From Candidatus Calditenuis fumarioli (GTDB lineage: Archaea; Thermoproteota; Nitrososphaeria_A; Caldarchaeales; Calditenuaceae), in NCBI GenBank assembly GCA_030059665.1, contig JANVYR010000001.1:672001-736000 (forward strand): a stretch of 64,000 nt of DNA, written 5' to 3'. The notes under the pieces are model-generated. The model saw only the letters and a program-made list of their open reading frames with translations. It was not told the DNA's origin and did not search any database. Position numbers and translations under genes: made by a program. This document shows positions 31,452-32,888 of the stretch, in pieces; positions within the stretch are counted from its first letter, which is position 1; each line of letters begins with the position of its first letter.

Positions 31452-32503
31452 TCAGCTCAGGTCCTTTTCCTCGGCTGCACCGGTCCGCCTGAACTTCCCC
31501 TTCCAGAAGGCCGGATAGGTTCCCCGCTCCATCAGGACGACGTCCGTCCTCACGAAGACGCCTCCCTCGTCGAAGTCGAGCGCCGACTTCTCGGCTTTGC
31601 CGAGGGCCACCAGCTCGCCCTTCAGCGTGAAGATCGCAACGAGGTCGCCCTTCTCGATGGTCCGGTCGTAACGCGCCACCCCGGGCGTCGCCAGTGGGGC
31701 TCCGTGGCATATGGCATCGACCGCCGTGTCGAGCACTTCCACCCTCGGGAGGTGTGCGACCAGCTCCTCGGGGTTCCGGACGATCTCCCTGAGCCAGGAC
31801 CCGTCGCCCTCCAGATAGGACCTGTAGGCGGCGTAGACCTCCAGCAGGCTGTGGGCCTGGGACTCGTGGAGGTTCCCGACCCTGGTGCGCCTGAGCTCGC
31901 GAAGGTGGGCTCCTGTTCCCAGCAGAAGGCCGACGTCGTGGCAGAGCTTCCGGACGTAGGTCCCTCCGCTGACGACGACCCTGAAGAGGACGTCCCTCCC
32001 CTCCCTCTCGAGGACCTCGAGCTCGTAGACCGTCCTGAGCCTGGGCCTCCTGGCGACCCTCGACCTGACGGGTGGGGTCTGGTAGATCTCGCCGACGAAC
32101 TTGGTCAGCGCCTCCGCCAGCTCCCTGTCCGAGACGTCGCCGTGCAGCCGCATTACGCCCACGTACTCCTTGGGCAGGCCCGTCACCGCCTGCGTGAGCC
32201 TCGTGGCCCTTCCCAGCAGCACCGGGAGGACGCCGGTTACAGCGGGATCTCCCCCGCCCCGAGGGCGCCAAGGGTCCCGCCGTGGCCGGCCTGCTCGACG
32301 CCGAGTATCCGGCGGACGGATGCCACCACGTCCTGGCTCGTAGGCCCGGCGTGCTTGTCCGCGACGAGGTACCCGAACTCGAGCAGATCCCGCAGGGTCC
32401 GGTCCTCGGGACGCTTGCCGTACCTCTCGTCGGTCGTCGCGTCCACCACCGTCACGATCTCCCTCTCACGCTCTCTGAAGGGGTCGGAGTAGACGAACCT
32501 CAA
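31452..32503 (-). CDS. cbf5: H/ACA pseudouridine synthase Cbf5 (TruB + PUA), two exons: 32503-32269 and 32248-31452
   Basis: Exons of 235 + 797 nt give 344 codons. Splicing restores GHGGTLD-PAVTGVLP; downstream YQTPP, SGGTYVRKLCHD and PUA domain. TTG start overlaps the rpl14e stop. Confidence 0.93.
32249..32268 (-). other. 20-nt archaeal BHB intron in cbf5
   Basis: GCGGGA/UCCCGC outer stem, CCCU/GGGG 4-bp helix, UGG and AGA 3-nt bulges, CGCCC-UCG-GGGCG inner hairpin. Cutting after nt 2 of each bulge yields CTT G|AT CCC. Confidence 0.9.
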
Positions 32504-32790
32504 CTGACCCCGACCTTCACCCTCGACCTCACGTACTCGATGAGACCCGCCTCTTCCAGCGCCCTCTTCACCTCCTCGTCGGACGCTCCCCTCGCTATCC
32601 TGACCTTGTGCGGGGTGAAAGCCAGGTGGAGCACGTTGACCCTGCGCCTCCTGACGCCCGATACCTCCTTGGGCCCGGTCACCACCACGAACCCGTCCTC
32701 CTTGTCGACGTCCACGATCACGCACTTCAGCCCCGCCTCCCTTCCCCTCGTCTTCACCGCGATCCTCCCGATCTCCTCATCCAGGCCCAT
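32500..32790 (-). CDS. rpl14e: 50S ribosomal protein L14e
   Basis: IGRIAVKTRGREAGLKCVIVD...VTGPKEVSGVRRRRVNVLHL; conserved rpl14e-cbf5 linkage. Confidence 0.96.
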   Translation of the reverse strand: MGLDEEIGRIAVKTRGREAGLKCVIVDVDKEDGFVVVTGPKEVSGVRRRRVNVLHLAFTPHKVRIARGASDEEVKRALEEAGLIEYVRSRVKVGVS

Positions 32791-32888
32791 GCCAGCGGCA
32801 CAGTCCATCAACCCAAATTTGAACGCTAACGACGCTGGAGGCGTCTGAGGGCGGAAGCGCAATAACCCGCGGGCTCGGTGGCCGGTGC

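Follow-up and report, generated by a model that had tools for sequence, protein, structure and literature searches.

A probable bulge-helix-bulge intron in the catalytic codon of cbf5 from Candidatus Calditenuis fumarioli, and inserts at the same site in other archaea

Introduction

So far, among archaeal protein-coding sequences, a spliced bulge-helix-bulge (BHB) intron has been published for cbf5 alone. Following its description in Aeropyrum and Sulfolobus, the intron was reported across the Desulfurococcales and Sulfolobales (Watanabe et al., 2002; Yokobori et al., 2009, PMC2738675). It disrupts the catalytic codon, is cleaved between nucleotides (nt) 2 and 3 of the bulge, and has published sizes of 16–44 base pairs (bp), with 16 bp in Desulfurococcus mucosus and 39 bp in Ignisphaera aggregans (PMC2738675). 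Splicing at this crenarchaeal site was demonstrated by cDNA and by in vitro cleavage. The survey of 2009 found no intron in the Thermoproteales, Cenarchaeum, Nitrosopumilus, or Korarchaeum, and the gain of the intron was placed in the ancestor of the Desulfurococcales and Sulfolobales (PMC2738675). Reviews of 2020 and 2023 describe the cbf5 intron as limited to a small group of Crenarchaeota. Here, we analyse the cbf5 gene in a 64,000-nt stretch of the genome of Candidatus Calditenuis fumarioli (contig JANVYR010000001.1, positions 672,001 to 736,000; hereafter the window, in whose numbering positions are given). The pre-mRNA of this gene very probably contains a genuine archaeal BHB intron of the splicing-endonuclease type.

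A BHB intron processed by the splicing endonuclease EndA has also been reported from the 5' untranslated region of an mRNA, HVO_1309 of Haloferax volcanii (Schwarz et al., 2020, PMC7714728). The Caldiarchaeum genome paper described tRNA and rRNA introns together with a heterotetrameric endonuclease, and a cbf5 intron was not mentioned there. Two-subunit enzymes of this type are tied in the literature to a broad substrate range. In the literature searched, which did not take in all journals, there was no report of a cbf5 intron for Aigarchaeota, Caldiarchaeum, Thaumarchaeota, or Bathyarchaeota. The host of the window, Calditenuis, belongs to the Caldarchaeales ('Aigarchaeota') and lies outside the Desulfurococcales and Sulfolobales, which make up the published range of the intron. 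This concerns the range of the intron and not its mechanism.

Results

The frame of cbf5 is broken within the motif that holds the catalytic aspartate. The gene is located on the minus strand, immediately 3' of the gene for ribosomal protein L14e. Read without splicing, its frame runs ...GVEQAGHGGTL-GALGAGEIPL-TAA and ends at a stop codon at 32239–32237, 10 codons beyond the break, which corresponds to a product of 88 amino acids (aa) counted from TTG 32503. Deletion of 20 nt (32268..32249) joins CTT G to AT CCC GCT and gives GHGGTLDPAVTGVLPVLLGR, with GHGGTLDPAVTG as the full motif stretch. The exon end ...GGGACCCTTG then meets ATCCCGCTGTAAC..., the junction-spanning peptide reads GTLDPAVTGVLPVLLGR, and the universally conserved motif GHGGTLDPxV(T/S)G is rebuilt. 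The spliced open reading frame (ORF) extends from TTG 32503 to TGA 31454–31452 and encodes 343 aa with the catalytic Asp at residue 79. This protein is colinear over its full length (residues 5–335 against 5–338) with the intron-less homologs P0044, P0056, and P0091 (335–338 aa), and the alignment is free of gaps at the junction. The NCBIfam models for Cbf5 are matched above their cut-offs (NF003280, 298 bits; TIGR00425, 289 bits). A first-pass annotation of the window, made from the sequence, had described the frame break, a 20-nt intron, the restored TLD-PAVTG, and the 343-aa protein; every one of these sequence statements was confirmed.

Exon 1 (32269..32503, minus strand, 235 nt) encodes the DKCLD domain (PF08068, E 2e-8) and GHGGTL, and its last base, G32269, is the first nucleotide of the catalytic Asp codon. 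The intron (32249..32268, minus strand, 20 nt) lies in phase 1 within the codon of Asp79 and reads G CGCCC UCG GGGCG GGGG AG as RNA. Exon 2 (31452..32248, minus strand) has 794 nt plus the stop codon TGA at 31454–31452; it opens with AT of the Asp codon, continues with DPAVTG..., and encodes the TruB_N, TruB_C_2, and PUA domains. The intron boundary is ambiguous by 1 nt, G32269 being identical to G32249, and cutting out 32250–32269 yields the same mRNA. The BHB rule of cleavage past nt 2 of each bulge picks 32249–32268.

Around this break, the transcript can adopt a complete hBHBh' motif of 45 nt (32239..32283, minus strand), identified by its fold, its pair counts, and frozen synonymous sites. 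The exon helix h comprises 9 bp (ACGGCGGGA/UCCCGCUGU; 32283–32275 with 32247–32239, minus strand) and the central helix H comprises 4 bp (CCCU/GGGG; 32274–32271 with 32254–32251, minus strand). H is flanked by two 3-nt bulges on opposite strands, the 5' bulge UGG (32270–32268, minus strand) and the 3' bulge AGA (32250–32248, minus strand). The intron hairpin h' (CGCCC-UCG-GGGCG, minus strand) has 5 bp (32267–32263 with 32259–32255) and a 3-nt loop (32262–32260). Both h and h' exceed the 2 bp that the strict hBHBh' definition calls for, and cuts past the second nucleotide of each bulge take out exactly 20 nt. The structure is the one drawn in the first-pass annotation, except that the outer stem, given there as GCGGGA/UCCCGC, actually runs to 9 bp. 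The BHB fold is the minimum free energy (MFE) structure at 70 °C (-14.6) and 80 °C (-10.2). At 37 °C, it lies 0.6 kcal/mol above the MFE, and the 51-nt region has a z-score of -2.7 against shuffles. The slightly shifted register that RNAfold gives at 37 °C was set aside, the BHB being the MFE structure at the likely growth temperature. Rfam and ARAGORN searches of the window returned only a tRNA-Val, and the cbf5 site is covered by no known RNA family.

The genome of the Calditenuis host, a hot-spring archaeon, comprises three contigs with a total of 1.57 Mb and a GC content of 62%. Among named records, Ca. Calditenuaceae archaeon JGI OTU-1 pSL4 is the nearest, at 89% identity. The class containing the host was represented by 76 species genomes of a single order with four families and includes, by name, Calditenuaceae, HR02, Caldarchaeum (with C. 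subterraneum), Pelearchaeum, Terraquivivens, Wolframiiraptor, and Geocrenenecus. All 30 loci examined from the four Caldarchaeales families (L001–L030) have inserts at the identical cbf5 nucleotide, with lengths of 13, 14, 16, 17, 19, 20, 22, and 23 nt. Four further loci from two of these families, fetched for their short frames, have inserts as well (13–21 nt). Every junction inspected in Terraquivivens and in three of the four families has an insert of 13–23 nt. Examples are pSL4 (20 nt), HR02 (19 nt), Ca. Caldarchaeum subterraneum (14 nt), Pelearchaeum (22 nt), and Terraquivivens (20 nt). Inspection of L012, L020, L133, L160, and L005 gave inserts of 16, 23, 21, 21, and 22 nt, respectively, and the variants GYGGTL, ...LPM, and AHAGTL of the protein motif were seen among the first four of these loci. 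The flanks of the Caldarchaeales inserts, GGCGGGACCCU.G and GGGGAGAUCCCGC, are preserved and the interior is variable.

The pattern of changes follows the helices. In 37 distinct Caldarchaeales sequences, the central helix is 100% paired and shows CG-to-UA double changes at two pairs, each of which joins a synonymous exon position to an intron base. Pairing in the exon helix reaches 95.8%, and the first hairpin pair occurs as CG (11 sequences), GC (9), AU (8), and GU (2). Altogether, compensatory double changes were found at five pairs. The covariation score of 0.198 compares with a shuffle mean of 0.119 and was reached in none of the 500 shuffles, a count that overstates significance given the kinship of the 37 sequences; slid partners scored 0.05–0.09. 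More weight attaches to the slid control and to the double changes specific to helices than to the shuffle count. Relatives with 13–14-nt introns lack h' and have a relaxed form of the motif. Among about 75 distinct homologs, a single one departs from full pairing (4/4) of the central helix.

The insert is absent from one clade of the Wolframiiraptoraceae (Wolframiiraptor, Geocrenenecus, and relatives), which provides a natural control. In the Cbf5 tree, the 17 intron-less sequences form a single clade (support of 98 in the Shimodaira–Hasegawa-like approximate likelihood ratio test, SH-aLRT), which is sister to the intron-bearing Terraquivivens. The intron-less clade is nested inside an otherwise all-intron clade of Caldarchaeales in this tree, which is unrooted. 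Codon usage at the paired positions differs between the two groups. The second Gly codon is GGG in 37 of 37 intron-bearing genes and GGA in 15 of the 17 intron-less ones. The Thr codon is ACC in 34 of 37 intron-bearing genes, whereas all four bases occur at the third position of this ACN codon in the 17 intron-less genes. Also, the Asp codon is GAT in 36 of 37 genes with the intron, as against GAC in 7 and GAT in 10 of those without it. The paired synonymous sites are frozen with the intron and drift without it; this contrast is direct evidence of selection on the RNA structure only where the intron exists. Sister clades with and without the intron represent a clean natural experiment on how selection for RNA structure freezes synonymous sites. 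Most probably, the intron was already present in the ancestor of the Caldarchaeales and was lost once within the Wolframiiraptoraceae, a direction read from the unrooted tree.

Inserts at the same position were also found outside the class. In Bathyarchaeia metagenome-assembled genomes (MAGs), inserts of 16 and 19 nt occupy the identical cbf5 nucleotide. All 36 loci outside the class that were picked for short open frames from a 401-genome sample of the phylum have inserts of 11–39 nt; these loci represent at least 18 further families. One of them, L158, has a 16-nt insert and the peptide VEKAGHGGTLD-PKVTGVLP as in D. mucosus, and the genome G250 (1.88 Mb, single contig) has a 39-nt insert. 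In both, as in the gene of the window, the break follows the G of the Asp codon, and their insert sizes are those of the D. mucosus (16 bp) and I. aggregans (39 bp) introns; species were assigned to L158 and G250 by peptide context and intron size and not by name. By sequence comparison, the intron in the window and the published crenarchaeal cbf5 intron are positional homologs, in agreement with the first-pass annotation, which had pointed to introns at this motif in crenarchaeal cbf5 genes. The expectation stated there, that an aigarchaeal host would extend the known range, is borne out for Calditenuis. The intron had also been called near-minimal; this does not hold, as relatives have inserts of 11–14 nt at the site.

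In the loci sampled outside the Caldarchaeales, the exon helix mostly has 0–5 bp, because the codon following Pro specifies Lys and not Ala. These short helices fit the 'relaxed' motifs in print. An 11-nt insert at the Asp codon of L126 (G079:C20:3750-4190) leaves no space for an intron-side helix and is below the published minimum of 16 bp for the cbf5 intron. The Aenigmatarchaeota MAGs L066 and L088 (locus position ~1150–1180) have a 12-nt insert at the identical nucleotide that is in frame and contains TGA; its central helix, CCUU/GAGG, is compensated. Two other Aenigmatarchaeota MAGs, L093 and L115, are without an insert, and in the Cbf5 tree their branches surround the pair that has the intron. 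This tree pattern suggests that the cbf5 intron was gained or transferred within the DPANN.

The survey for genes of the splicing machinery revealed two EndA paralogs (190 and about 180 aa; PF01974, 88.7 and 42.5 bits), each with N- and C-terminal endonuclease domains. The candidate for the catalytic subunit (C1:825436-826005) matches the catalytic repeat of two-repeat EndA models, and the candidate for the structural subunit (C1:664042-664584) matches the structural repeat. As judged by eye and not from an alignment with a reference EndA, the first protein has candidates for the Tyr/His/Lys triad and the second has no His at the matching spot. The ligase RtcB is encoded as well (528 bits) and contains an intein. 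Its gene (C2:419125-422022; L167:226-3123) lies outside the window as a single 965-aa ORF, in which the RtcB domain is split at approximately residues 113–567 by the intein (Intein_splicing plus a LAGLIDADG-like domain). The enzyme that is expected to ligate the cbf5 exons therefore needs protein splicing, too. ARAGORN predicted about 17 tRNA genes with introns of 12–51 nt in the genome. It also reported tRNA 'introns' of 1.1–2.1 kb at C1:624548-625735, C1:626773-628148, C1:848399-850184, C2:180281-182467, C2:261843-263329, and C2:491720-493447, which may represent either falsely joined sequences or tRNA genes into which other elements have inserted.

The cbf5 gene is the sole TruB-family (TruB_N) gene in the genome, and a gene for Nop10 is present. 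The 20 nt must therefore be removed for the H/ACA synthase to function. The first-pass annotation had proposed that Cbf5 activity hinges on splicing and that H/ACA pseudouridylation is thereby linked to EndA and RtcB; the single TruB-family gene, the two EndA genes, and RtcB support this proposal. The gene for Nop10, a partner of Cbf5 in the H/ACA complex (C1:827375-827473), and that for the candidate catalytic EndA subunit are located ~1.4 kb apart on the same strand.

The genome-wide scan for strict hBHBh' motifs (h >= 5, h' >= 3, L 11–120) gave 3504 matches, compared to about 3100 in shuffles, and 431 of them would link a pair of open frames, each with 50 codons or more. At 62% GC, such frames arise by chance, and the top matches after a GC3-GC2 coding filter are mostly ordinary gene–gene junctions. 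Such a scan had been proposed in the first-pass annotation. It recovered cbf5 and no second convincing mRNA intron among strict motifs, relaxed (hairpin-less) introns being outside its reach. The aEF-2 gene of this genome is uninterrupted.

With regard to the surroundings of cbf5, the L14e gene (32500..32811, minus strand) was recognized by a KOW match above the cut-off and a weak Ribosomal_L14e match under it. At 32500–32503, the sequence TTGA combines the TGA stop codon of L14e with the presumed TTG start codon of cbf5, and from this overlap the two genes are probably co-transcribed and translationally coupled. Downstream of the break, an internal ORF starts at GTG 32222 (31455..32222, minus strand, 256 aa). 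It has neither the DKCLD domain nor the catalytic Asp, and the TruB_N match of the downstream frame begins at profile position 17. This 256-aa 'Cbf5' is an annotation artefact of an intron not recognized by gene callers.

The same artefact is widespread in the databases. The entry P0027 (256 aa) is 99% identical, and 'Cbf5' entries of 247–268 aa from Aigarchaeota/Caldarchaeales MAGs number in the dozens. Within P0027–P0146, dozens of proteins of 225–268 aa without DKCLD and the catalytic Asp are named Cbf5 or 'H/ACA ribonucleoprotein complex subunit 4'; the short ones belong to Aigarchaeota, Caldarchaeales, and Nitrososphaerota. These short entries are a systematic artefact of the unmodelled intron: the catalytic Asp is missing from Cbf5 entries of ~250 aa because the models of gene callers make no provision for this intron. 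The first-pass annotation had expected the gene to be labelled a pseudogene; instead, the databases mostly give the name 'Cbf5' to the downstream ORF of 256 aa that is devoid of this residue. Other Cbf5 entries (P0002–P0009, P0013 and P0010–P0022) comprise ~505-aa Cbf5–cytidylate kinase fusions and ~780–850-aa intein-bearing Cbf5 proteins (LAGLIDADG plus Intein_splicing), some of them labelled Hodarchaeota.

Discussion

The observations on cbf5 are consistent with the following course of events. On folding of the transcript, the exon codons for GGT (GGC GGG A) would pair with those for DPA (U CCC GCU), and the bases CCCU of the Thr and Leu codons would pair with GGGG at the 3' end of the intron, the interior forming the 5-bp hairpin. 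A two-subunit EndA would cleave past the second nucleotide of each 3-nt bulge. RtcB would then ligate the exons, and the GAU codon of Asp79 and the 343-aa frame of Cbf5 would be rebuilt. Left unspliced, the transcript would yield just the 88-aa fragment or the 256-aa product without Asp.

Several points weigh against this reading. BHBs as strong as that of cbf5 (h >= 7, H = 4, h' >= 5, L <= 45) number 18 genome-wide, compared to 14–20 in shuffled genomes. Taken on its own, the shape of the fold proves little, because equally strong BHBs are as frequent in shuffled sequence. In three raw hot-spring metatranscriptomes, from a study that is possibly the source of the DNA, 3–5% of each run was sampled; one run gave 13 reads on the gene, none of them at 32218–32319 and none joined across a gap, and the other two gave zero. 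Among the sequencing runs listed as matching the stretch, none was an RNA run. Cleavage and ligation in vivo, their efficiency, and the exact cut sites are predicted from sequence. The start codon TTG 32503–32501 is presumed from the frame and from colinearity with homologs of 338 aa. Judging by its two paralogs, EndA is putatively a two-subunit enzyme of the crenarchaeal type, the arrangement also reported for Caldiarchaeum. The chance that the cut sites fall exactly where both the frame and GTLDP return is about 6e-6 per position. The weight of the evidence lies in the position of the motif together with conservation and covariation in relatives, which are beyond chance.

The frame break could in principle be a frameshift mutation or an assembly error, with cbf5 as a pseudogene; the unspliced frame ends after 10 codons, and gene callers give just a truncated ORF. 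We consider this very improbable. The entire stretch matches a 17.5-kb metagenome contig with zero differences, in a run that is possibly the source of this DNA, and half or more of the words of the stretch occur in 19 other DNA runs, from metagenomes of hot springs and other sources, a match at the level of words and not of the 20 nt. Species differ in the length and sequence of the insert at the same nucleotide and show compensatory changes. Both exons of this sole TruB-family gene are conserved at the protein level and colinear with intact homologs. The comparative data already contradict a pseudogene or an assembly error. We consider it just as improbable that the insert remains in the RNA and is skipped in translation, by ribosomal bypass (hopping) or by programmed frameshifting. 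A stable hairpin does stand directly past the break, as at some recoding sites, but conserved matching take-off and landing codons are absent, and inserts of 11–39 nt occur in all three phases, including in-frame ones of 12 and 21 nt with stop codons. All inserts obey the BHB geometry of 3-nt bulges and a 4-bp helix, which is a need of EndA and not of the ribosome, and it is splicing that cDNA and in vitro cleavage showed for the identical site in crenarchaea. With two open ORFs, the second of which starts at a GTG of its own, one might think of a split gene whose 88-aa and 256-aa products cooperate without RNA splicing. The probability of this is close to nil: neither product holds the catalytic Asp or DPAVTGVLPV, positions 32223–32248 would stay untranslated, and the part of the exon that precedes the GTG shows protein-level conservation in the spliced frame.

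Of a different kind is the idea that the intron acts as a negative switch. EndA would cut it, most transcripts would be degraded or remain unspliced, and Cbf5 expression would be throttled. Negative regulation was proposed by the authors of the crenarchaeal work (Watanabe and colleagues). In its favour, the intron was long retained at one codon where the unspliced product is surely dead, and the BHB becomes the unique MFE structure only at high temperature. However, such persistence could be explained equally well by the exon-encoded helix, through which the site tolerates the intron and precise loss becomes rare, and one clade dropped the intron with no visible consequence. A switch of this sort therefore seems unlikely to us, and a spliced BHB intron remains the preferred reading.

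The published picture of a single gain is altered by the occurrence of the intron at one and the same nucleotide in Caldarchaeales and Bathyarchaeia, in some Aenigmatarchaeota, and in no fewer than 18 other families of Thermoproteota. Tentatively, the Asp-codon intron may be ancient, predating the divergence of the TACK lineages, and not a crenarchaeal innovation. The lineages retaining it would include Caldarchaeales, Bathyarchaeia, and Desulfurococcales/Sulfolobales, with repeated losses in the Wolframiiraptor clade, Pyrodictiaceae, Ignicoccus, and the ammonia oxidizers, and it could occasionally have reached the DPANN. As part of this tentative scenario, the site might have been held at one nucleotide because the GGT...DPA codons themselves form the exon helix of the BHB.

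The locus shares features with three described systems. With archaeal tRNA introns, both canonical and non-canonical BHB, it has in common the recognition motif, EndA, RtcB, and the size range. It differs from them in that the intron lies in the coding region of an mRNA and the exon helix is made of codons for a protein motif, so that protein and RNA constraints overlap. Like HVO_1309 of H. volcanii, it represents a BHB element in an mRNA that would be processed by EndA; HVO_1309, however, concerns an untranslated leader in a euryarchaeon with a homodimeric EndA, and no codon is interrupted there (PMC7714728). The closest counterpart is the crenarchaeal cbf5 intron, which occupies the same gene and the same nucleotide, past the first base of the catalytic Asp codon. 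Both are short BHB introns, 20 nt being within the range of 16–44 bp, and both are accompanied by a two-subunit EndA, a putative one in Calditenuis, and by lineage-specific loss. Splicing is experimentally established for the crenarchaeal intron, whereas for Calditenuis it is deduced from sequence. The Caldarchaeales intron differs further in its host and in its strict hBHBh' form with an exon helix of 7–9 bp, as opposed to the mostly relaxed motifs of the crenarchaea. The mechanism is a known one and not new; the intron is found here in a lineage, and with a distribution, wider than the literature states.

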